IMG/VR virus record: IMGVR_UViG_3300032250_000069
Location: 1 to 32,503 of that record
DNA length: 32,503 bases
Origin: a virus
Lineage: Duplodnaviria > Caudoviricetes
Direction: 5' to 3' (one strand)
Part shown: piece by piece, positions 1,462 through 29,557 of the stretch
How the letters are laid out: every line of letters starts with the position of its first letter
Numbering within the stretch: position 1 is the stretch's first letter
Made by a program: the position numbers and the translations under genes
Notes under the pieces: generated by a model
Seen by the model: the letters and a program-made list of their open reading frames with translations, nothing else
Told to the model about the DNA's origin: nothing
Databases searched by the model: none

Positions 1462-4400
1462 ATGGCTCTACTAGGTGCGTCATTCGCAAACCCATATTTA
1501 ATTGATGCAAAGGTAGGGGTTACAGCAAACCCATACGAAACAGCAACCCCTGCAACTGGTATCGGTTCCGGGGGTTTATCCCCATCTATGGCTGACTTTG
1601 CAGCGTTAGGTGAAAGCCTAATAAAACCATCGCAGTTCACTATGCCTGAAATGAAACAGGTTGACAAAGTATGGCTCAACCCAACATCTAAACAAGTATA
1701 CGTAAATGGTTTGACCTTTGATGCAGATGACGCATCTTCGGCTTTGCAATCAGAACAGTATCTAGCTGGTCCAGCTCAGGGTGCACCTGAGGGTGCTGGT
1801 TGGACTCCAATAAGTGAGTCATCATATGGTCAGTACCTAAACTCTATCCGTAATCCAAGTCTAGGGCGACTAGCCTCTAAGAACTTTGGTATTGGTGTCG
1901 ATAATATGCAGCTGCTTGCAGGCAGAGGTCTGCAACTATTAGGTGCTGAACAAACTGGACAAGCAATAGTTGACCAACAAGCTCGTGATATACAGAAGTC
2001 TGCACCGTTTGTCCGTGAGTTTTCTAACATTGACTCAGGTGGTGATGCTGTCGATTGGTTCGTGGCTAACTTAGCCCAACAGGGTCCTAACTTACTTGAG
2101 TCAATAGCTGTTGGTGTCGCTGGCTTTGGTGCTGGTACTGCGGTGGGTGGTCCTCTTGCTGGTCTGTCTGCTGGTGTCGCTGGGATATTAGGTAAGGCTG
2201 CAACCAAACAAGCTATTCTGGCTGCGGCTAAGAAGAAGGCTGCGGGCGAAGCTCTTAATGCTGCTGAAAATAAAATACTACGTACTGCTGCCGGTACTGC
2301 TGGTGCTGTAGCTGCGTCTTATGGTAGTAATATTGCCACTGGTGCTGCTGATATTTATGGTGAGATGCGTGAGCAGGGTGTAACTGCTGATGATGATGGT
2401 GCTAGACTCTCGGCACTTGCTGGGTCTCTTCCATACGCTGCACTTGAATCCTTATCTGAATTTGTATTGGCATCTCGACTCTTTGGTGGTATTAAAGGAA
2501 CAGGTAGAGACCTAGCTTCTATCAAAGGTAAAACAGCATTAGGTACAGGTGTTAAACGCTCTGGTGAATTACTAAAACGCTTCGGTGTTGGTGCTGCTGT
2601 TGGCGGTACACTTGAAGGTACGACTGAAGCTGGTCAAGAAGGTATTGTACTTGGATTGTCGGGTCAAGATTTAACAAGTCCAGAATCCCAAAAACGATTC
2701 CTAGAATCCTTTGCAGCTGGCTTTGGTGTTGGTGGTACATTGGGAGGTATAGCTAACCTACGTAGAGGTAAAACACCAGTAGGCGACACGCCTATTAACT
2801 TACTGAACCGAGAGCAACCAGCAGAATTAAGTACAGCTCTTACTGTTGTACCTCAATCAGAAACAGGTGTACCCACTGGTAATGTCACTACTGGTGGTAT
2901 GATGGGTCGCCCAGAATTTATTACTGGTCCTGATGGAACAACTAGAGCTTCACGCCCAAGCGATACAATCTATGTAGGCGGAGCCGCACCGGGTCAATTC
3001 GGACAACAAGGTGTATTAGATATATTCGGACCTGAAGGTGCAACTGTTGCAGAATTGCAACAGCGCAGTACGCTTGAGAACCCGATTGGTATTCCATACT
3101 TAGGTGAACAGCCAGCTAATATTCCGGGCCAAGGTCAGTTACAGTTTTCAGCTCCGGCTCCTGCGCCTACCCCAGTAAATACACCAGCTACACAAATGCA
3201 ACAGGCAATGCAACAAGCTGAGATTGCTAGGGCAATCGAACAGCAACAACTTCTACAAGAGCAACAACGTCAAGCAGACCTTGACCGCCTAAGTATTGTA
3301 GCTAGTAACCAACGTCAGTTAGATTTAATACAGCCTGAGCTTGCACCTGCACCTGCACCTTCATTACCTATGCGTCAAACTCGTGCACCAGACCCACAAC
3401 AGCTACAATTATTTGGTCGTGGTCAAGCACCGAAGCCTTCAATGCGTGAGCGTGTTCGCCTTGGTATTCCTGCACCTCAACAAGAAGCACCTATTACATC
3501 GGCACCTAAAGTTGATTTACGTAGGGGTAAACAGACGTCATTATTCACCCAAGAGGGTGAGCCGACCATAGCTGCTTTGCGTTCTGCTGGTGCTAAGAGT
3601 CCAGTCCGTAGTATCCCAGAGGTAGGTGGCAGTCAGATACCACCAACAGGACAAACAGTTACACCTACTACTATTGCAGCTGCGGTTGCCAAGAAGGGTA
3701 CAGCTGCTAAACTTAAGGCAAAGGAAAAGAAAAATGCCGTTCAAGAGCCAAGCACAACGCAAGTGGATGTACGCAAACAATCCGGAACTAGCGAAGGAGT
3801 ACGAAAGCAAGACGCCAAGCTCCGCAAAACTACCGGAGAGGGCAAAAAAACCACGCAAGAAGAGCAAGGAACAAGTGTACAAGATGTAACCTCCGCAGTA
3901 CCAGAACAAGTCACCACTTGGGACAGACAAAATAGAAGTGGTCGTAATGAAGAATGGCAAGCTGGTGCTGCCGAATCGAACCCCGCATTTAGAGCAGTTG
4001 ATGCTGACTTTATTCCAGCCCATGGTATGGCTAAAGTATCTACCTTAACCCAAGCATATAACGATTTAGTAAATCTATTAACCAATGGTATTGACCCTAA
4101 TAGAACATTATTTACGGCAGGGTTAACTGCTCAAGCAGGGGTTGGAGCGGCAACGGGTACAGCAGGTGGATACGCTTATAGAGATGGACCGTTTATACTT
4201 ACGTTTAGACAAGGAACAAAAGGACAACCAACGCTAGCTGACCTCATCGGAGTCTTAGTAAACCCAGCGAACTCAGAATTAGTATCAATACTTCAGGAGC
4301 AATTCCCTAATATAATGGTTCGGGATTATAATAATGTTGCTGATATTGTAGATAATTCAAAGCTGCCAACACCACCAACAACACCTAAACCTACAGGTAA

Positions 4401-7400
4401 AGATGTTCTAAAGAAAAAGACTACAGTTGAAACAACTAAGGCTACAGGTAAAGATACCTTAAAGCGAAAGCCTAAGATTGTAAATGTTCGCCGTGTTACT
4501 GGCGGTAATGTAGCACCTGAAAAGGTTCGTGACATTGGTTTCCACTTTGGTACAGCGACACAAGTAGCTGACATAAAGAAGTCAATAACTAATCCACGTG
4601 AAGTACAAGTAGATATTGATACTAGCAATTTACTTAGATTATCTGAGCCTGAGTTCGGTGGATGGGCTAACCCTGTATCTGTATTAGCTGTACTGGATGC
4701 CGCTAATATTACTGTACCTGATGCAGTACGTAACTTTGTAAACGGTATAGCTGTATCTGATAAACCAATTATGCGAGGTAAGGAAATACCTACAGCGCAA
4801 CGAGCTGCGTTAGATGCACTTGCTAAAGCGGTGGAATCTAAAGGCTACGCTGGTATTGTTTACGAGAATAAGTTTGAAGGTAATAAGACTGAAGATAGTT
4901 ATATCCTATTTAATATGCCTAGCGATACTAAGCCAGTAGCTCAGGTTTCAGTATCGGAAGTACCAAAGACAGGACTGGCAGCGTTAGTAGCTCAGGTTAC
5001 AGCTCCGCCACAGCCGAAAGAAAAGAAGTCAGGTGAAGTATCTGAAACAACTCTAGATTCCCAGCAAATACTTGAGGATGCCATTGAGACAGTAGAAACT
5101 ACTAAGTCGGCAGTGAGGTACGCAGATGCTATGCGTGAAATTGTTGACGTGTATGTAACCGAAACAAATCAAGCGACCAAGTTGTTCAAGACAGCCAATG
5201 AGTTCCTGTTCGGTACAGAGTCTATTCCCGTAACTGAGTTTGTTAAAGCCCTACAATCATTTGCACTTACGATGCCTAGAATCAACCCACGCTCGCGCTT
5301 GTACAAGTTGCTTAACGATTACAATTTGTTGGATGACTCAGCAATTAAATTACGTGTATCTACTAAGAAGGATGAGGAAGATGTTACCACAGGTGCGAAG
5401 GTAGATGAAACACCTGAGGAAATTGACCGTGTAGCTGTGCAGTTAGCAAACCTAATTAACAATCGTGACGGTGAGTTTGACCGTAAAGCTTTAGCCCGTA
5501 AAGCGGAAGCCTTATACAAACAAGTTGAGGATACATCATTTGCTGTTGGTTCTCGTGGGTCTATCGAAGATTTCTTTAATAACGGTAAGCCAATCGTGGT
5601 ACAGAAACCGGGTACTAACTTCTATGTATTGTCTAGCGTTGAAGAAGCTAAACTATCACGCGAAGAATTTGCTAAGGCTCATGCAGCTGCCCGTAAAGAG
5701 CTCCGTGATTTAGAGCTTGAAGCCGCCGAAGAAGACCAACGAACTGCGCTTGAGTTAAAGTTCCAACAGGAATCCGGAATCCGTGAGGATGACAACATGC
5801 TAGGTGGATTAGCCAACTACTACCGTGCTGATGAGAAACCAAGTCAGCCGATGAAGGCAGGGGCACTACGCTTGTTAGCTAACAAGTTTATATCCAAGCT
5901 ATCACGTAAACCAAAGTTACATGTGTTCCAGAATCTGGAAGATATGCGTAGAACAAATCCCAAGTTGTTTAGAGAAGCTGCTGCTGCGCGTCAGGCTGGT
6001 GACTTTGAAGCAGTTAACGCTGCTGGTATGGCATGGGGTAACACTGTCGTCTTATTCGCTGACAATATTAACGGTGAGCAACACGCTAACTTTGTAATGG
6101 CTCATGAGATTCTGGGTCACGTAGGTTTCCGTGGTCTATTCAGTGACACAGAGCTGAACAAAATCTTACAGACAATCGCAGACTCAGACATACAAGTTAA
6201 CAACGCAGCTACAATTTTATCTGAAGCTCAAAATATTCCATTCCTAGAAGCAGTAGAAGAAGTTCTATCTGACCGAGCAGCTGCTATCGACTCATCTACC
6301 ATGATGAGATTCTGGACATGGATGAAAAACCAACTGAACAAACTAGGATTTAAGTTTAATGATGACGCAGCAAGGTACTTAGTCAGTCTATCACGCAAGT
6401 ATGTGCGTCAAGGTGTGGGTCGCAGTGAGGTCAACGTAAAAACTCTCTTGCAGGAAGCGGCTACAATGCGAGAACTCGAGCGGTCTGATGTTGAGGTATT
6501 AAGGTTTGCCCAACTCGCGCCACAGGGCCAGCAAACAGCAGCCATGAACGCCATGAACCAAAACGTAACTTCGACAGGTGGTTTAGAAGGTATTTTAAAC
6601 TGGTTAAACAATAGCGATACAAAAACTGCTGACTTGCGCCGTAAATATGATGGCACAAAAATAAATACCAAAGATACTATGAAGAATTTCTTTGGGTTAC
6701 TACGCACTCAAGATGATATGGCTCGTGATAGTAAAGGTTCGGCACTTATATTTGGTCTTACTCAGCGTAAAGGTGAGATGCAACAGAAACTAAAAACCAA
6801 ATATGCAAAACTTACACAGCTTGCACACGAAGCTAAGTTCATGATGTTCGGTACAGGACCTGAGCCATTGGAATCACAACAGGCTGGACAGTTACTAGCC
6901 CTTGGTTCTTTAGCTAAAGCCAACCAGTTCACAGACTCACAACTTCAAGATAGATTTGAAGCACCGATTGCATACTCTACAGACCTAGGGCAGATTATTA
7001 TAAACTCAGATGCGTTTGAGTCGCTATCCAAGGCAGGTACTATGACTGTCGAAGATTTCAAAAAAGGTTTCGATGTACAGCTAGGCTTTACAGAGAAGCC
7101 TATGACACCAGAACATAAGACAAAATTAGAAACTGACCGTGACCAAGAAGTTGCTTTGATAGAAGCCCGTAAGAAGCGTGACCTCGAACGTATCCAACGT
7201 AAGATTGCTGATACTACTGATACAAAAATAAAAACATCACTACAAGATACATACAATAAAGCCGAAGATAAGTTTGATGCTATGCTCCGTAGTACTAAGG
7301 CGAACTATAAAACTCAGATTGATAGTCCTACATATAACGCCCCTAACTACGTTAACACTAAAGACATGGCAGAGTACGCATGGACTAAAGATATGACCAA

Positions 7401-10350
7401 GGACAGCATCCAGTACAAAATGTACTTGCAGTTCCGTGAAGCTATCAATGAGAGCCAGATGGATGTGCTCACTGCTAAATATGCTGGTGCTATGTACGAG
7501 CAAGAAAGTATACTTAATCGTGGTATTGACCGAGCATTTACTAAATCCCTAACGGAAGCTGAACGCCGCCTAGTTACTGCTGTGTCGGATGAGTATGACC
7601 GTATTGCTTTGAAAGATTCATCATACGAGAACAACCGATTCAAAATTAATGAGGTGTCTCAAGCTGATGCCGTAGATTTTGTTGAGAAACGTTTCGCTCG
7701 TTCATTTTATAACGACAATGCGCTTAATGATTTTGCATCTACATTGCCGAACTACACGCCTGACGAAGTCAAAGCACTGGTTAATAGTATGCGTAGAAAA
7801 TTACGTGTCAAGATAAACCCTACTGAAGACCCTGCTAGTAAGTCATCCATCTGGGACTTGGCATACTCTATGGAAGAACGTAGCACGTTTACTATCTCAT
7901 TAAACGATGACTCCCTGTATGCCAAACGAAGTATTGCTGGTGGCTATGCCCCCCTATCTCGCCGAGGTAAATTCCAAGTTCGTGTGCAAGCATACACCAT
8001 CGACTCGAATGGTAATGAGGAACCAGTCAAGCTACATCAAGGTCAGCAAGACTCACTACCACTATTCATGACTGAGAAAAAAGACGAGTCCATTGGATAC
8101 GCAGAAGAATTAAACGGGCTACTTACAGGTCAGTACTCTATGCGTGATGCCAACAACCGTGTATCTCCAGTGTACTTGAAAGCACTTGTCAGTGATGTGG
8201 AAACTACCCCTGCACTCGTAGACATCATGCACTATGATGATGTTATGTATGCTCTAAGTCGTTTGGGTGTGCAGATGCCAGTGGCTGACCGTGAGATTCT
8301 GATTAAGAAAGTAACTGCACAGAACTCAAGAGCACGTTCAAACTTACAGCGTGGTGGTGTACCGGGTTGGGATAAAGATGTTGTACGTAGTTCATCTGCG
8401 TTCCTTGAGCAGCAGGCTTATGTTGCAGCTAACAAAACATTCCGCCATCAATTCGATGGTGTACTAGAAAATAACCGTAACTGGTTTGGTGACCGTGACA
8501 AACTGGCAGAACTCAAAGCAAAATGGGAAGCTGCTACAGGCCCAGCTAAAGAACTAGCTGCACGTGAGTACTACCAAGAGAAATACTACTTCGGTAAAGC
8601 CAATGAGAAGGTCGGTGACACTAACGTATTACGTGCCAACTTCTATAAAGAACGTGCTAAGTCACAGCTAGATTGGCAAGACTCTACTGGTGATGTTGTG
8701 TTTGCTGATGACTTCTGGAACAACAATCAGTTCTCACTGAGCGCACGTACTTGGGCAGCGGTATCACAACTCGGTGGTTCTATTGCCACTGGTATTACTC
8801 AGATGCTATCACTACCAACCAACTCATGGGCGTATCTATCTGGATACAACCCTGAGAATAACTTCGGTCTTGGTCTTGGTGCTGGTCGTGCTGGTGCTTT
8901 ACTTACCAAGTTCGCAGTATCTGCGGCTAATCCGAAGTACATCAGTATAGATTTCTTAGATGCACAACTTGCAGAACTCGCACGTACTGGAGCCAATGAA
9001 AGTAAAGACGGTCTTACAGCCAACGAGTTACGATTCCTAAAAGATTTAACCGAAGAACAACGCCTTGATGCAGCACAGTTTAATGCACTGACTGGCACAG
9101 TCCGTGGGCGTAAAAGCCTTATGGGTAACCCAACCTTCCAGAAGTTTGTTCAGACATGGATGTTCCCATTCAGTTACTCGGAACAGTTTAACCGCCGTGT
9201 TACCGTACTGGCTGCATACCGTGGTGAGTATGAACGTCAGATTGCTGCTGGTAAAGATATTGAAGAGGCTGACATAAATGCACGTAACGCAGCAGATAAA
9301 GCTCTTGATGCTACGCAAGGTGACTACTCACAATACAACCGCCCAGCGTTCTTCCGTGGTGGTCTAATGTCATTTGTCTATATGTACAAGCAGTATCCAA
9401 TTATCATGTTGCAACTATTCAAGAACATGGACCGTAAAGGGCAAATCATTATGCTTGGGTCTCTGATACTACTGTCTGGTTTACGTGGTCTGCCGGGTGC
9501 TGATGACATACTTGATATGATTGATGGGTTGATGCAACGCTTAGGATTACAGTTTGCCTCAGTAGAGAAAGAGTTTACTAGACTTACACGAGATGCGCTT
9601 GGTCCAGAGTTAGGTGCCGCGCTTACCCCAGTCATGATGCGTGGTCTACTGGATGCAACCACTGGCTGGTCATTCTCAAACCACTTAGGTCTGGGTGATA
9701 TAGTTCCGGGAACTGCATTGTTTAAACCATCTGCTTCTGCACAAGAGAAGCTACGTGAAGTCGAGAACTTAGCGGGTGCACCTACATCATTTATGCTTGG
9801 TGTGTTTGACTGGGCATCTGGTACTGTACCAGCAGTGATTACAGGTAGGCAACCACTCAGCAAGATACTTACAGATGCACCAGTTAGAGCATTGAAGAAC
9901 GCCTCTGAAGCGTGGAAGTACGCTAGTACAGGTGCAATCCTAGATAGCAAAGGCTATGTGGTGTCCCAAGATGCTGCGGCATGGGAGATTCTAGGTAAGG
10001 CAATAGGCTTCTACCCAAGTCGTGCACAGGTACAAATGGATTGGATGATGGCTGATGACCAAGAAGAAAGATACGGTCAGATGATTAGAAGTGAAGCTAT
10101 CCGCGAAGCAGTAGCAGCCAGATTAAATGGTGACAACGATAGACTTGCGAGCGTACAAGAATATGTTCGTGACTGGAACACCGATGTTAAAGGTACTCGT
10201 CTTGAGATTAGAAACTTTACCGGTGGTGTATCTAAAGCATACAGAGAAGCTGCGAAACCACTAGCAGCTAGGGCACTCAAGTCATCTGCTAGGTCAGGTA
10301 GACAAGAGGCCGAAGAACTTGCTGCTCTGTATGGGTTTGAAGTTCGCTAA
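1462..10350 (+). CDS. Giant (2962 aa) polyvalent internal virion / DNA-ejection protein with ART-like, zincin-like and PLxRFG-like regions
   Basis: SD (AGGA) before the ATG. Gly/Ala-rich hydrophobic N-terminus; HEILGHVG zincin-like motif (~6103); YAPLSRRGKF PLxRFG-like motif (~7945); SEQFNR and QGDYSQYNRP C-terminal motifs. Last gene of the virion module, next to the SLT gene. Confidence 0.8.
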   Translation: MALLGASFANPYLIDAKVGVTANPYETATPATGIGSGGLSPSMADFAALGESLIKPSQFTMPEMKQVDKVWLNPTSKQVYVNGLTFDADDASSALQSEQYLAGPAQGAPEGAGWTPISESSYGQYLNSIRNPSLGRLASKNFGIGVDNMQLLAGRGLQLLGAEQTGQAIVDQQARDIQKSAPFVREFSNIDSGGDAVDWFVANLAQQGPNLLESIAVGVAGFGAGTAVGGPLAGLSAGVAGILGKAATKQAILAAAKKKAAGEALNAAENKILRTAAGTAGAVAASYGSNIATGAADIYGEMREQGVTADDDGARLSALAGSLPYAALESLSEFVLASRLFGGIKGTGRDLASIKGKTALGTGVKRSGELLKRFGVGAAVGGTLEGTTEAGQEGIVLGLSGQDLTSPESQKRFLESFAAGFGVGGTLGGIANLRRGKTPVGDTPINLLNREQPAELSTALTVVPQSETGVPTGNVTTGGMMGRPEFITGPDGTTRASRPSDTIYVGGAAPGQFGQQGVLDIFGPEGATVAELQQRSTLENPIGIPYLGEQPANIPGQGQLQFSAPAPAPTPVNTPATQMQQAMQQAEIARAIEQQQLLQEQQRQADLDRLSIVASNQRQLDLIQPELAPAPAPSLPMRQTRAPDPQQLQLFGRGQAPKPSMRERVRLGIPAPQQEAPITSAPKVDLRRGKQTSLFTQEGEPTIAALRSAGAKSPVRSIPEVGGSQIPPTGQTVTPTTIAAAVAKKGTAAKLKAKEKKNAVQEPSTTQVDVRKQSGTSEGVRKQDAKLRKTTGEGKKTTQEEQGTSVQDVTSAVPEQVTTWDRQNRSGRNEEWQAGAAESNPAFRAVDADFIPAHGMAKVSTLTQAYNDLVNLLTNGIDPNRTLFTAGLTAQAGVGAATGTAGGYAYRDGPFILTFRQGTKGQPTLADLIGVLVNPANSELVSILQEQFPNIMVRDYNNVADIVDNSKLPTPPTTPKPTGKDVLKKKTTVETTKATGKDTLKRKPKIVNVRRVTGGNVAPEKVRDIGFHFGTATQVADIKKSITNPREVQVDIDTSNLLRLSEPEFGGWANPVSVLAVLDAANITVPDAVRNFVNGIAVSDKPIMRGKEIPTAQRAALDALAKAVESKGYAGIVYENKFEGNKTEDSYILFNMPSDTKPVAQVSVSEVPKTGLAALVAQVTAPPQPKEKKSGEVSETTLDSQQILEDAIETVETTKSAVRYADAMREIVDVYVTETNQATKLFKTANEFLFGTESIPVTEFVKALQSFALTMPRINPRSRLYKLLNDYNLLDDSAIKLRVSTKKDEEDVTTGAKVDETPEEIDRVAVQLANLINNRDGEFDRKALARKAEALYKQVEDTSFAVGSRGSIEDFFNNGKPIVVQKPGTNFYVLSSVEEAKLSREEFAKAHAAARKELRDLELEAAEEDQRTALELKFQQESGIREDDNMLGGLANYYRADEKPSQPMKAGALRLLANKFISKLSRKPKLHVFQNLEDMRRTNPKLFREAAAARQAGDFEAVNAAGMAWGNTVVLFADNINGEQHANFVMAHEILGHVGFRGLFSDTELNKILQTIADSDIQVNNAATILSEAQNIPFLEAVEEVLSDRAAAIDSSTMMRFWTWMKNQLNKLGFKFNDDAARYLVSLSRKYVRQGVGRSEVNVKTLLQEAATMRELERSDVEVLRFAQLAPQGQQTAAMNAMNQNVTSTGGLEGILNWLNNSDTKTADLRRKYDGTKINTKDTMKNFFGLLRTQDDMARDSKGSALIFGLTQRKGEMQQKLKTKYAKLTQLAHEAKFMMFGTGPEPLESQQAGQLLALGSLAKANQFTDSQLQDRFEAPIAYSTDLGQIIINSDAFESLSKAGTMTVEDFKKGFDVQLGFTEKPMTPEHKTKLETDRDQEVALIEARKKRDLERIQRKIADTTDTKIKTSLQDTYNKAEDKFDAMLRSTKANYKTQIDSPTYNAPNYVNTKDMAEYAWTKDMTKDSIQYKMYLQFREAINESQMDVLTAKYAGAMYEQESILNRGIDRAFTKSLTEAERRLVTAVSDEYDRIALKDSSYENNRFKINEVSQADAVDFVEKRFARSFYNDNALNDFASTLPNYTPDEVKALVNSMRRKLRVKINPTEDPASKSSIWDLAYSMEERSTFTISLNDDSLYAKRSIAGGYAPLSRRGKFQVRVQAYTIDSNGNEEPVKLHQGQQDSLPLFMTEKKDESIGYAEELNGLLTGQYSMRDANNRVSPVYLKALVSDVETTPALVDIMHYDDVMYALSRLGVQMPVADREILIKKVTAQNSRARSNLQRGGVPGWDKDVVRSSSAFLEQQAYVAANKTFRHQFDGVLENNRNWFGDRDKLAELKAKWEAATGPAKELAAREYYQEKYYFGKANEKVGDTNVLRANFYKERAKSQLDWQDSTGDVVFADDFWNNNQFSLSARTWAAVSQLGGSIATGITQMLSLPTNSWAYLSGYNPENNFGLGLGAGRAGALLTKFAVSAANPKYISIDFLDAQLAELARTGANESKDGLTANELRFLKDLTEEQRLDAAQFNALTGTVRGRKSLMGNPTFQKFVQTWMFPFSYSEQFNRRVTVLAAYRGEYERQIAAGKDIEEADINARNAADKALDATQGDYSQYNRPAFFRGGLMSFVYMYKQYPIIMLQLFKNMDRKGQIIMLGSLILLSGLRGLPGADDILDMIDGLMQRLGLQFASVEKEFTRLTRDALGPELGAALTPVMMRGLLDATTGWSFSNHLGLGDIVPGTALFKPSASAQEKLREVENLAGAPTSFMLGVFDWASGTVPAVITGRQPLSKILTDAPVRALKNASEAWKYASTGAILDSKGYVVSQDAAAWEILGKAIGFYPSRAQVQMDWMMADDQEERYGQMIRSEAIREAVAARLNGDNDRLASVQEYVRDWNTDVKGTRLEIRNFTGGVSKAYREAAKPLAARALKSSARSGRQEAEELAALYGFEVR
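3734..3889 (+). CDS. Nested +1-frame small basic protein (51 aa, MPFKSQAQRKWMYANNPELAKEYESKTP...)
   Basis: AAGGA at 3721-3725, 8 nt before the ATG at 3734. The sequence resembles small MPFKSxAQRxWMYAN proteins I recall from phages (not searched). Confidence 0.55.
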   Translation: MPFKSQAQRKWMYANNPELAKEYESKTPSSAKLPERAKKPRKKSKEQVYKM

Positions 10351-26887: not shown

Positions 26888-26920
26888 TGTGCTACCTCCG
26901 TCATAGTTAAGTTACGTTAT

Positions 26921-26961
26921 CGGTACAAGTACCGTGCTAGTACTCTCATTGAAAGCACTAG
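26921..26961 (-). other. Tandem intergenic hairpins (candidate structured RNA or processing site)
   Basis: CUAGUGCUUUC-AAU-GAGAGUACUAG (two G-U pairs on the - strand), then CGGUA-CUUG-UACCG. Confidence 0.5.
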
Positions 26962-26972
26962 ACCAGTCTGCA

Positions 26973-27251
26973 CTAGATTCGTATACCAAAGCGTTTCTTG
27001 TAGATATAACTTCTAGCCTGTTCGTACAGTTCTTTGTACGTATAATCATCTGACAAATCCAGTATTGCAGTTAGCTCATCTAACACTGCTAACACCTCAT
27101 CACTTACTGCCTTGTTATTTAGATTTTTTGCTACGTCATCAATTATCTTTGAGATAGTGCTATCAGATAACACCTCACCGCTATACTCCCTAACTACTTC
27201 ACCAGATGGTGTCCTCACTACAAAAAACATATCTACGCTAAAATCTTCCAT
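26973..27251 (-). CDS. Hypothetical protein
   Basis: TAATG overlap with the upstream gene; AGGGGG SD. Confidence 0.65.
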   Translation of the reverse strand: MEDFSVDMFFVVRTPSGEVVREYSGEVLSDSTISKIIDDVAKNLNNKAVSDEVLAVLDELTAILDLSDDYTYKELYEQARSYIYKKRFGIRI

Positions 27252-27463
27252 TATTTCATTCCCCCTTTGTGTGAACTGTTTAACCCAACTAATAACTGCA
27301 TGTCTGTAACCACGATGTAGTTACTCTTGGGTAGTGGTACGATTGTATGTCTTACTGCTTTAGCTTGCTTGTCACCACATGCTAGACAAGTGCTATAACC
27401 CAACTTCCAACGTGCTGTCAGCACATGGTCACCACACTTGTTACATAAGTTCTTCCATTCCAT
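27251..27463 (-). CDS. Small zinc-ribbon protein
   Basis: CNKC and CLAC; PLPKSNY. Confidence 0.75.
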   Translation of the reverse strand: MEWKNLCNKCGDHVLTARWKLGYSTCLACGDKQAKAVRHTIVPLPKSNYIVVTDMQLLVGLNSSHKGGMK

Positions 27464-27471
27464 AAGTCAAA

Positions 27472-27496
27472 AGGCAGTATTGCTACTGCCTCCTCC
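27472..27496 (-). repeat. SD-hairpin element family A, copy 1 (GGAGG AGGCAGTA-GCAA-TACTGCCT)
   Basis: Identical 25-mer at 27771-27795; 8 nt from the hairpin to the ATG at 27463. Confidence 0.9.
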
Positions 27497-27504
27497 GTAG
27501 TTGT

Positions 27505-27762
27505 TTATATCACACTGAACGTGTCATCATCCTCATAAAACCAGCTAGTGTAAGTGTAGATGCTACCCTCAACACTAAAGTACTGACCATGCACAGTTTC
27601 GCTATCTTCCTCAAGCCCCACTTCCTCAAGGCTCAAGAACTCAACACAGTCCTCCCAGTGCATCTGGTCAACTAGGTCTAACTCATCAGCAACATACTGA
27701 TGGTAGGGTACATTTGCTTCTGCTACTACTTCAACTACTTCCTCATAAAAATCAGGGTACAT
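27505..27762 (-). CDS. Highly acidic 85-aa early protein (start revised to 27762)
   Basis: ATG 8 nt after the SD-hairpin element; 23 D/E and no K or R. Confidence 0.7.
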   Translation of the reverse strand: MYPDFYEEVVEVVAEANVPYHQYVADELDLVDQMHWEDCVEFLSLEEVGLEEDSETVHGQYFSVEGSIYTYTSWFYEDDDTFSVI

Positions 27763-27770
27763 AAGTTCAT

Positions 27771-27795
27771 AGGCAGTATTGCTACTGCCTCCTCC
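27771..27795 (-). repeat. SD-hairpin element family A, copy 2
   Basis: Identical to 27472-27496; 8 nt to the ATG at 27762. Confidence 0.9.
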
Positions 27796-27808
27796 ATGGT
27801 TAATGATA

Positions 27809-28075
27809 TTAAAACAACTTCTTCTTCTCAACAGTACCTGCTAAAGTACCTTCGACAAACTGCAAACCCTTAAGGTCGTCACACTTAAGGTACAAAGCAC
27901 CACCTGCTTGTGGTGGCACAGATGCTCTGATTGTTTCATTGGACTTAACAGACGATGTAACCTTTTGTACTGTTAACCCACTGAACGTACCGTTCTCATT
28001 CACCTTTGAGGCTGTAACCTCAATGTAAAACGTAATTGGTTTGATTGACTTCTTCAATGTAGCTGTAATAGCCAT
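27809..28075 (-). CDS. Early protein, paralog 1 (VNENGTFSG...EKKKLF)
   Basis: AGGAG SD; clear paralog of 29294..29557. Confidence 0.8.
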   Translation of the reverse strand: MAITATLKKSIKPITFYIEVTASKVNENGTFSGLTVQKVTSSVKSNETIRASVPPQAGGALYLKCDDLKGLQFVEGTLAGTVEKKKLF

Positions 28076-28143
28076 AATAACTACTCCTAAAGTGATAAAT
28101 AAAATAAATATAATAACAACCTGACTAGGTCAGGTCAGGTTTC

Positions 28144-28171
28144 AGATTAGCACGGACTCGAAATCCGACAA
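28144..28171 (-). promoter_or_regulatory. Early promoter 1: TTGTCG-16-TAATCT with extended -10 TGn
   Basis: Same layout as 29617-29644 (ACTTTTTGTC...AATCTGAAA), upstream of the paralogous gene. Confidence 0.6.
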
Positions 28172-28181
28172 AAAGTTTAAA

Positions 28182-28194
28182 AATCAACGACTTA
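28182..28194 (+). promoter_or_regulatory. IHF-consensus site
   Basis: AATCAACGACTTA matches WATCAANNNNTTR; lies between the promoter and the repeat region. Confidence 0.45.
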
Positions 28195-28249
28195 GCGAGG
28201 CTCGCCTTACAAAAACAAATACTTGTATGTATTTGAGTATGGTTTTGGG

Positions 28250-28700
28250 TTATGTAACCGCATGTATTTGTATAATGTAACCACGATATAGCACATAAGC
28301 CAACAATCTACAAAAAGTCAGTAGTTTATCAGCGATATAATGTAACCTTTAAATTTAGATTATTGTAACCTCCTTGCTAGGCTTGGGTTGTAGAGGCAAT
28401 AATCTAAATAATCTAATAATCTGCGCCTTAAATTGTAAAACAGGGGGGTGTTGTGTTGTTAGATGGTTACATGCCCACATCAATGTAACCTGTAATAAAA
28501 ATTTACTGTCTGGTGTGTGTTAAATAATGATAGATTATTAGATTATTTAGATTATTTATATATATATATACTGGAACCCGCACCAATGCTAGTGGTTACG
28601 TTTAGTAATTTAATCTGTGGTATGTAACCGCCATAGATTGCATAGATTATTGCTTAGATTGTTATAAAACGTAACCGATACAGTATAAAAACGTAACCAC
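28250..28700. repeat. Iteron-rich non-coding region, putative replication origin
   Basis: 10 GTAACC/GGTTAC copies; perfect 25-bp inverted repeat at 28398-28422 and 28532-28556; (TA)n run at 28557-28570. Confidence 0.6.
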
Positions 28701-28786
28701 CCCATGCGATATAGTGATATGTGTCGCTGTTGAAGGCTGCACCCCCCGGCGTATGGTTGGTAAAAACTTAAACAAAAAATAAGAAC

Positions 28787-28813
28787 AAAAGAAAACCCGG
28801 CTTTCGCCGGGCT
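28787..28813 (-). terminator. Rho-independent terminator
   Basis: AGCCCGGC-GAAA-GCCGGGTT followed by TTCTTTT on the - strand. Confidence 0.85.
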
Positions 28814-28827
28814 GGTTGTTCAGTAGA

Positions 28828-28855
28828 CAGACTAGGTTTCCCTAGCCTGCTCCTT
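28828..28855 (-). repeat. SD-hairpin element family B, copy 3 (no gene follows)
   Basis: AAGGAG CAGGCTAGG-GAAA-CCTAGTCTG; the single change gives a G-U pair; the terminator follows. Confidence 0.85.
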
Positions 28856-28862
28856 GTTAGTT

Positions 28863-29009
28863 TTAATTCAGTGGTATTACGTTGATGTCAGTGCACTTAC
28901 ATACCCATAACTTAAATCTTGCTTTAAGTAGTCCTAGGTATCCGACTGCTATGGTTCTATCAGTTGTATCTATTGCTGTTGTGTACATCACTAAGAATTT
29001 AGTTTTCAT
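28863..29009 (-). CDS. Hypothetical 48-aa protein (not in ORF track)
   Basis: MKTKFLVMYTTAIDTT...NVIPLN; ATG 7 nt after a family B element; stop just before the next element. Confidence 0.6.
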   Translation of the reverse strand: MKTKFLVMYTTAIDTTDRTIAVGYLGLLKARFKLWVCKCTDINVIPLN

Positions 29010-29016
29010 TTTAAGT

Positions 29017-29044
29017 CAGGCTAGGTTTCCCTAGCCTGTTCCTT
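29017..29044 (-). repeat. SD-hairpin element family B, copy 2
   Basis: AAGGAA CAGGCTAGG-GAAA-CCTAGCCTG ACTTAAA ATG. Confidence 0.9.
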
Positions 29045-29056
29045 GTTGGTTAAAAT

Positions 29057-29248
29057 TTACTGCGAAAATGTTTGCATCATTGACGAAAACATTTTCATGC
29101 ACTTAATTTCTATTTCCCGCGTTTCCTCTGCTGATAGTATTGGCTCAACATACGGGCGGGAGCTCCTTTCTCTCCAACGGGCGAACAGAGCTTCCTTCTC
29201 TGCCGCTTTCGCGGCTATTTCCTCTGGTGTAAGTTCAAAATAAAACAT
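29057..29248 (-). CDS. Hypothetical 63-aa protein
   Basis: ATG 7 nt after a family B element; bounded by elements on both sides. Confidence 0.65.
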   Translation of the reverse strand: MFYFELTPEEIAAKAAEKEALFARWRERSSRPYVEPILSAEETREIEIKCMKMFSSMMQTFSQ

Positions 29249-29255
29249 TTTATGA

Positions 29256-29281
29256 CAGGCTAGGTTTCCCTAGCCTGCTCC
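29256..29281 (-). repeat. SD-hairpin element family B, copy 1
   Basis: GGAG CAGGCTAGG-GAAA-CCTAGCCTG TCATAAA ATG. Confidence 0.9.
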
Positions 29282-29293
29282 GTTTAGTTTAGA

Positions 29294-29557
29294 TTAGAAC
29301 AACTTTTTCTTTTCAGTTGTCGGTTTAGTTTCGTTACTTTCGAGGATTGTTATCCCGTCCAGTGACGTAGTCTTAAAGTAGACTGCACCGCCTGCCATTG
29401 GTGGCACGCTAGTCATGAAAGCGCATCCTTTCGGCTGTTTCACAATCTTGGCAGTGATGCCAGAGAATGTGCCGTTTTCATTGACTCGAGTGGCTGTAAC
29501 TTCCAGAGTGAAAGTGACAGGTGCAATCGACCTCTTAACAGTGGCTTGATTAGCCAT
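29294..29557 (-). CDS. Early protein, paralog 2 (VNENGTFSG...EKKKLF)
   Basis: AGGAG SD; paralog of 27809..28075. Confidence 0.8.
   Translation of the reverse strand: MANQATVKRSIAPVTFTLEVTATRVNENGTFSGITAKIVKQPKGCAFMTSVPPMAGGAVYFKTTSLDGITILESNETKPTTEKKKLF

Follow-up and report, generated by a model that had tools for sequence, protein, structure and literature searches.

How is translation initiated at genes whose Shine-Dalgarno (SD) sequence lies 28-30 nt from the ATG, on the far side of a stable hairpin? The question is raised by IMG/VR record IMGVR_UViG_3300032250_000069, a partial genome of 32,503 nt from an uncultured tailed phage (the whole stretch is hereafter called the window), in which five short elements on the minus strand each consist of an SD and a stem capped by a GNRA loop, followed in four of them by a short spacer and an ATG. 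An earlier note had read these elements as split ribosome-binding sites (RBSs) used systematically for early genes. The analysis presented here suggests that they probably do work as split RBSs of the type known from T4 genes 25 and 38, with the hairpin bridging the SD to the start; the reading is supported by covariation of the stems, constant geometry in sister phages, near mutual exclusion of the two possible SD positions, and the controls of a wider pattern scan.

All five elements were found at the positions reported earlier, within two short leftward cassettes, each of which opens with one of a pair of paralogous genes of 87 and 88 amino acids bearing an ordinary SD. In the first cassette, element B1 (29256..29281) comprises the SD GGAG (29281-29278), a 9-bp stem with a GAAA loop that begins 16 nt past the upstream stop, and a 7-nt spacer to the ATG at 29248, and B2 (29017..29044) comprises the SD AAGGA, a 9-bp stem with a GAAA loop, and a 7-nt spacer to the ATG at 29009. 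The orphan copy B3 (28828..28855) has the SD AAGGAG and a 9-bp stem with a GAAA loop, and it bears the single stem substitution, which gives a G-U pair on the coding strand as previously observed; it lacks an ATG and directly precedes an intrinsic-terminator-like hairpin with a U-rich tail (28794..28813, minus strand) that closes the cassette and is conserved in relatives. In the second cassette, A1 (27771..27795) and its near-exact copy A2 (27472..27496) each have the SD GGAGG, an 8-bp stem with a GCAA loop, and an 8-nt spacer, leading to ATGs at 27762 and 27463, respectively.

The elements lie 13-18 nt past a stop codon. The distance from the 3′ end of the SD to the ATG is 29 nt in B1, 28 nt in A1 and A2, and 30 nt in B2 when counted from AAGGA, so that the distance of 28-29 nt claimed in the earlier note held for the first three and not for B2; when aligned, the linear SD spacing is 27 nt in all four gene-bearing copies. 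With the stem counted as zero, the spacing becomes 5, 5, 7, and 7 nt, which bears out the proposal that looping out the hairpin restores canonical spacing, as 20 of the 25 ordinary window genes have 3-8 nt. The spacers are also free of any other SD, as had been noted: no anti-SD pairing was found at positions −20 to −4 of the four element-served ATGs, and 22 of the 25 other window genes reach −4 kcal/mol or better there. Thus, the layout combines a distant SD, a stable hairpin wholly between the SD and the start, and a working spacing once the hairpin is looped out, and at B1, B2, and A2 no alternative SD or start serves the gene, with an in-frame stop 21, 6, and 3 nt upstream of the respective ATGs and no other start in between.

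The arrangement is not readily obtained by chance. GNRA-capped stems of at least 8 bp numbered six on the minus strand of the window (the five elements and the terminator hairpin at 28813-28794) and zero on the plus strand, against a mean of 0.03 and a maximum of 1 in 200 dinucleotide shuffles; the full motif of SD, stem, and ATG was observed four times and never in the shuffles. The stems are predicted to form with pair probabilities of 0.98-1.00 and energies of −11.6 to −16.6 kcal/mol, with folding z-scores of −4.0 to −4.8 for four of the elements. Rfam gave no match near its gathering score, the three weak matches between 26000 and 31000 all falling far below it.

The stems also covary. The elements had been assigned to two unrelated sequence families, a division not supported by their gap-free alignment, in which the A and B elements have the outer AGGC/GCCT pairs in common and differ at four compensated inner pairs; judged by this alignment, they are probably one family. 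In an alignment of 11 hand-picked related rows (five from the window and six from relatives, leaving out two 8-bp variants misregistered by the aligner and one near-duplicate), two-sided changes occurred at 9/9 stem pairs and 98% of the 99 cells paired, compared with at most 51.5% in slid controls; because the rows are related, the shuffle counts are not to be read as probabilities.

The foremost alternative holds that the hairpins are mere RNA 3′-end stabilisers or weak terminators, that translation starts independently of an SD from the A/U-rich spacer, and that the apparent upstream SD simply arises from stem ends being rich in G. We consider this unlikely, although an SD is indeed missing from 3 of the 25 ordinary window genes. 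Termination is poorly matched by the 8-nt tails of the elements, which contain two U in B1 and B2, three in B3 and A1, and five in A2, against a median of six in hairpins with no ATG behind them (surveyed below); A2 alone reaches the at least 5 U in 8 nt expected of an intrinsic terminator, B1, B2, B3, and A1 falling below it, and a terminator scan of the minus strand listed none of the five elements. B2 was flagged as a terminator on the plus strand, yet the gene layout gives no converging transcript and this antisense candidate was set aside.

To follow the hairpins beyond the window, loci were fetched with the 87-amino-acid protein. Within these, 90 of 95 distinct GNRA hairpins lay on the coding strand, mostly right after a stop codon. 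A survey of gene junctions in loci L001-L258 and the window then yielded 145 distinct junction hairpins: 67 with an ordinary SD 3′ of the stem, 63 with no ATG, 13 with a short SD-less spacer (an ATG 5-9 nt past the stem with no intervening SD), and two with a distant ATG lacking an SD. Median U counts in the 8-nt tail were 2-3 for internal junction hairpins and 6 for those with no ATG, and internal junction hairpins are thus mostly not intrinsic terminators. The 67 downstream-SD cases are what the stabiliser alternative would predict, as junction hairpins occur there regardless of SD position; yet an upstream SD, outside and just 5′ of the stem and pairing at −4 kcal/mol or better, was almost confined to junctions without a downstream one, being present in 10 of the 13 short-spacer junctions versus 2 of the 67 downstream-SD junctions (and 4 of the 63 with no ATG). 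The upstream and downstream SD positions are therefore nearly mutually exclusive.

The split form is also phylogenetically restricted. An ATPase tree of 36 rows, with a midpoint root only, was built from the window and 35 of 80 loci, the criteria for inclusion being a unique protein and a junction hairpin no more than 6 kb away. A clade with 100/99 support united the window, L179, and L180 amid 32 rows that have hairpin-then-SD junctions only, and the SD-first form marks this one three-phage clade among the window relatives. The remaining row, L217, was automatically labelled as split; on inspection it proved to be a 5-nt-loop repeat with a 3-nt spacer and was not counted. This locus has two pairs of repeated 5-nt-loop hairpins (L217:3397, 3778, 4913, and 4939), intergenic and upstream of the ATPase gene. 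The two sister phages keep the same geometry as the window, a constancy of distances that the earlier note had named as a check on its proposal. The A element precedes an unrelated gene of 120-127 amino acids in the sister phages, which argues that the element is a portable unit. In neither sister phage does a hairpin precede the 70-amino-acid gene served by A2, which has an ordinary SD there, homologues of the 85-amino-acid gene behind A1 have the order hairpin, U-rich stretch, GGAG, and ATG, and homologues of the 48-amino-acid gene behind B2 (in L179, L180, and L148) start with an ATG 5-6 nt past the hairpin. Each sister phage also keeps one ordinary junction.

The layout was sought more widely in IMG/VR with a pattern consisting of GAGG, a three-pair GAAA-capped core, and ATG, which returned 120 loci from 18 of 64 parts scanned. 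Stem lengths were bimodal, reaching at least 7 bp in 47/120 loci (28 distinct), and an open frame of at least 50 codons began 6-10 nt past the stem in 43/120 (24 distinct), every one of these 43 with an upstream stop within 30 nt. When ATC replaced ATG, 13/120 stems were of at least 7 bp and 3/120 had open frames; when GCGG replaced GAGG, the figures were 11/120 and 7/120, and several of these still had an upstream SD-like motif. The drop from 43/120 to 7/120 speaks against the stabiliser alternative, as does the clustering of spacers at 5-10 nt. None of the 24 distinct elements had an SD in the spacer, and in 19 the SD lay outside the stem. A version with a UUCG loop, run without a control, gave ten strong stems and four open frames in 120 loci, and bacterial genomes (2 of 64 parts scanned) gave 6/121 strong stems and 3/121 long open frames, a far lower share than in viral contigs.

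Among 20 upstream open reading frame (ORF) fragments tested from these elements, nine matched major head families (phrog_10, 1328, and 514), one SSB, and one RecT, and the downstream genes included matches to head-tail adaptor Ad1 and to tail tubular and pilot proteins. In one locus, L318:295-336, a phrog_514 major head gene is followed by a pilot-protein gene, and the 7-bp GAAA hairpin at their junction stands between a long SD and a spacer of 10 nt; if its source is a microvirus, the layout reaches single-stranded DNA phages.

One family from the scan is the junction of genes 5 and 6 of phage HK97 (capsid to gp6; AF069529 5185-5219, L860:393-435), which runs from the stop through GGAGG, a GAAA-capped stem, and a 9-nt spacer to the ATG, with no linear SD for gene 6. 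Its hairpin is annotated in GenBank AF069529 only as a putative terminator (5192-5213), which accords with the stabiliser alternative. The gp6 chain in PDB 3JVO begins at the same Met, although this is a recombinant construct that reflects the annotation and is no proof of initiation in vivo. To avoid selecting for hairpins, junctions were also chosen by protein (15 of 26 matches from one search, two from another, and HK97). All 13 junctions that follow a capsid gene had a hairpin, again in keeping with hairpins that are present regardless of SD position; eight had an SD downstream (one judged by eye), two were split (HK97 and Serratia phage OS31), one was ambiguous, and two had no SD, the last being compatible with SD-independent initiation. 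The five protein-chosen junctions after non-capsid genes simply abut or overlap. The hairpin is thus general at post-capsid junctions and the SD-first form is a recurrent minority, as in the window relatives. It follows that the layout is not tied to early genes, as had been supposed; within the window, its claimed systematic use applies to four genes and was too wide a description, since 22 of the 25 other genes have an ordinary SD.

Several observations weigh against a split RBS. In the window, the folding z-score of A1 is only −1.1, with 26/200 shuffles folding equally well, and its gene could alternatively start at an in-frame TTG 69 nt upstream, which has an AGGT of its own. Folding predicts partial pairing of the A2 and B3 SDs with the 3′ tail, which for A2 counts against use of the SD, and the A2 stem can be extended into the SD through G-U and A-U pairs; the HK97 SD is likewise predicted to be partly paired, with the U tract. 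B3 retains its SD and stem without a gene, as a stabiliser or terminator might, although most simply it would be a junction left behind after gene loss. The 63-amino-acid protein behind B1 returned only itself in a homologue search. Among the 13 short-spacer junctions, nine come from three sister genomes and hence are not independent, L013 being the passing upstream-SD case from a separate lineage, and three (L029, L031, and L148) are under the SD threshold. The scan pattern itself imposed the SD, loop core, and ATG, and GAGG overlaps the stem by 1-3 nt in 11 of the 24 distinct elements, so that G-rich stem ends could mimic an SD, as the stabiliser alternative proposes. Finally, the abundance of the upstream gene products, on which the functional interpretation below depends, is deduced from gene identity or position.

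Translational coupling, in which ribosomes that terminate at the upstream stop unfold the hairpin and start again at the following ATG, would make the hairpin a gate instead of a bridge. Every element does follow a stop, at 13-18 nt in the window and 5-6 nt in L001, L002, and L013, and all 43 scan elements are within 30 nt of one. We nevertheless regard coupling as improbable: a melted hairpin puts the SD at its aligned distance of 27 nt from the ATG and leaves both the narrow stem-to-ATG spacing and the abutment of the SD on the stem unexplained, and within the clade the stem may begin anywhere from 5 to 23 nt past the stop, yet its distance to the ATG is confined to 6-8 nt. A mini-ORF through the hairpin was considered and rejected; an ATG precedes the SD in A1, L001, L002, and HK97-like junctions and is absent from A2 and the B copies, and neither the presence nor the frame of an ATG-initiated mini-ORF across the hairpin is conserved.

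The hairpin might instead be an operator, bound by a phage protein such as the duplicated 87/88-amino-acid protein and switching translation of the early followers. Near-identical hairpins do recur downstream of the duplicated small gene in both cassettes, and a split RBS with a hairpin operator exists in Escherichia coli thrS (Sacerdot 1998, as cited in the consulted part of PMC3936740). The control site bound by a phage protein that the earlier note had entertained is not supported, because stem sequences and loops vary freely: changes occur at all stem pairs, the loop at equivalent junctions is GCAA, GAAA, TTCG, GAGA, or GCGA, and no bulge or invariant motif was seen besides GNRA. The layout occurs with UUCG loops as well (4/120) and after the capsid genes of unrelated phages, and an operator is, if anything, slightly less probable than coupling. 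Nothing supports the other function that the note had suggested, evasion of SD-targeting RNAs. Action at the DNA level, through hairpin promoters for an N4-like virion RNA polymerase or recombination repeats that swap gene cassettes, is very improbable: the phage does encode a 2962-amino-acid protein of unassigned function, and the same element fronts unrelated genes in sister phages, with variable gene content between elements, but the GNRA loops favour the coding strand (the 90/95 cases above), a G-U pair is tolerated on the RNA strand in B3, the SD and ATG keep a fixed geometry, the loops of N4 promoters are of 3 nt, and recombination may account for spread and not for geometry.

If the elements are split RBSs, the 30S subunit would pair with the SD while the folded stem bulges out and the AUG reaches the P site, the SD and start codon being brought to 5-7 nt of one another. 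The hairpin probably predates the split site, because at these junctions most relatives also have a hairpin, followed by the SD. As most tails hold too few U for termination, its original role was more likely as a shield for the 3′ end of the upstream mRNA, as an insulator, or as a pause site. GGAG, GAGG, or AGGA occurs at the base of the 5′ arm in 26/67 downstream-SD hairpins versus 3/62 no-ATG hairpins, and in the three-phage clade a GGAG or GAGG at the stem base plausibly lost its pairing partner; losing the paired 3′ bases and the downstream SD together would expose the stem-base motif and flip the SD to the 5′ side of the stem. The resulting unit of 25-28 nt would then have spread through copying before unrelated small genes. 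The net effect would be a step-down in expression from an abundant first gene to weaker followers, which is likely because in other phages this arrangement comes after genes for capsid, SSB, and RecT proteins. Such a junction would retain the benefit of the hairpin for the upstream message and give the follower a moderate rate, tunable by the extent to which the stem invades the SD, as in A2 and HK97.

The window has PHROG matches that include a DNA polymerase, helicase, primase, AAA ATPase, and large terminase, and its nearest cultured relatives are distant (terminase 44% to Pseudomonas phage Rollin, ATPase ~30%). From their position, the cassette genes are presumed to be early genes. The first gene of cassette 1 (29294..29557, minus strand as for all the cassette genes) has an ordinary SD and encodes the 87-amino-acid protein with the C-terminus KKKLF; the first gene of cassette 2 (27809..28075), also with an ordinary SD, encodes an 88-amino-acid paralogue that is 53% identical. 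The 87-amino-acid protein had no Pfam or PHROG family, no Foldseek match at E ≤0.001, and no usable Atlas match, with a best VIA Z of 2.4; its AlphaFold model has a predicted local distance difference test score of 81 and a predicted template modelling score of 0.57. The duplicated protein is beta-rich and has 77 homologues, and the sister phages retain both copies, each after a similar promoter-like stretch.

Behind B1 is a candidate gene, a 63-amino-acid ORF without a detected homologue (29057..29248), and behind B2 is the 48-amino-acid gene with the homologues described above (28863..29009). A1 precedes the gene for the 85-amino-acid acidic protein (27505..27762), whose homologue search returned only itself, with relatives recovered by tblastn on the fetched loci; it contains 23 Asp/Glu and zero Lys/Arg and is a candidate DNA mimic or anti-defence protein. 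A2 precedes the 70-amino-acid Cys-rich gene (27251..27463). Between the cassettes, an AT-rich, non-coding stretch (28160-28820) contains a perfect 25-bp inverted repeat (28398-28422 / 28532-28556), clustered GGTTAC/GTAACC hexamers, and, past the terminator, a GC-rich box conserved in L040 and L041; this stretch may be a replication origin or a packaging region. A hairpin at 26911-26970, close to the end of the 92-amino-acid gene, has a counterpart in L002 (5401), which suggests a further conserved element. Elsewhere in the window, the 2962-amino-acid protein (1462-10350) matched only phrog_11358, and that through its C-terminus, with no counterpart in Pfam or the PDB. The early region of L010 and L011 (e.g., L010:2390, 3527, and 5561) contains a dispersed palindromic repeat with a 7-bp arm and a 3-nt centre that is a candidate operator.

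The closest known systems are in phage T4. As described in excerpts of PMC3014915, a hairpin cuts the SD spacing from 22 to 5 nt in gene 38 and from 27 to 11 nt in gene 25, stem mutations reduce initiation, and the arrangement is limited to close T-even phages; the same two genes are named as the examples of split initiation regions in the part of PMC7297116 consulted. As far as these excerpts go, T4 genes 38 and 25 resemble the phage elements in that the SD is too far from the AUG and an intervening hairpin restores the spacing, and the gene 25 site, like them, lies between cistrons and originated in a single phage clade. Unlike the T4 sites, the putative split site described here is a repeated, portable unit present in five copies before unrelated genes, it probably goes back to a junction hairpin that in most relatives still precedes an ordinary SD, and its layout recurs after capsid genes in unrelated phages. 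We assume that its origin was convergent with that of the T4 hairpins.

The HK97 gene 5/gene 6 junction shares with the window elements the stop, GGAGG, GAAA-capped stem, spacer, and ATG with no linear SD, but it lies in a late structural operon, has a U-rich tail, and is annotated as a terminator only. A study of gp6 dosage (Cardarelli et al., PNAS 2011) may also treat the HK97 hairpin. Other intercistronic hairpins act as partial intrinsic terminators after capsid genes (the T7 T-phi type) or as barriers to 3′-exonucleases. Like the phage junctions, they are GC-rich hairpins directly after a likely highly expressed gene; unlike them, the window copies are mostly without a U tract and the hairpin lies inside the RBS of the next gene and not before it. 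The thrS site, in the part of its description consulted, resembles the phage elements in that ribosome binding is compatible with a folded hairpin inside the site. The protein-bound operator hairpin of thrS lies 5′ of the SD, whereas the phage hairpin stands between SD and AUG and has no conserved recognition sequence.

In the literature searched, which covered few subscription papers, no report was found of repeated or post-capsid split sites, and in the excerpts consulted descriptions of split SD-hairpin-AUG sites were found only for T4 genes 38 and 25. What appears to be new here, judging from sequence comparison, is a traceable SD flip and its spread to capsid junctions, with HK97 as a direct test case. 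RBS calculators and gene callers, which regard hairpins of this kind as terminators or as inhibitory, would get these starts wrong, and the naturally occurring variety of stems, loops, and spacers lends itself to testing how large a structure fits into a 30S initiation complex. More broadly, SD-hairpin-start junctions may be a general, repeatedly evolved device that sets protein stoichiometry, in which one junction of 30-40 nt caps the upstream message and meters the downstream protein, with at least two dozen distinct versions including the HK97 capsid-to-gp6 junction, and many annotated terminators would then be parts of RBSs; we advance this tentatively, at somewhat short of an even chance. 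If the elements are indeed split RBSs, such sites could be studied in HK97 gene 6 in E. coli K-12, would evolve by a traceable flip of the SD across an existing hairpin, and would be common at phage junctions that step from an abundant to a scarce protein.

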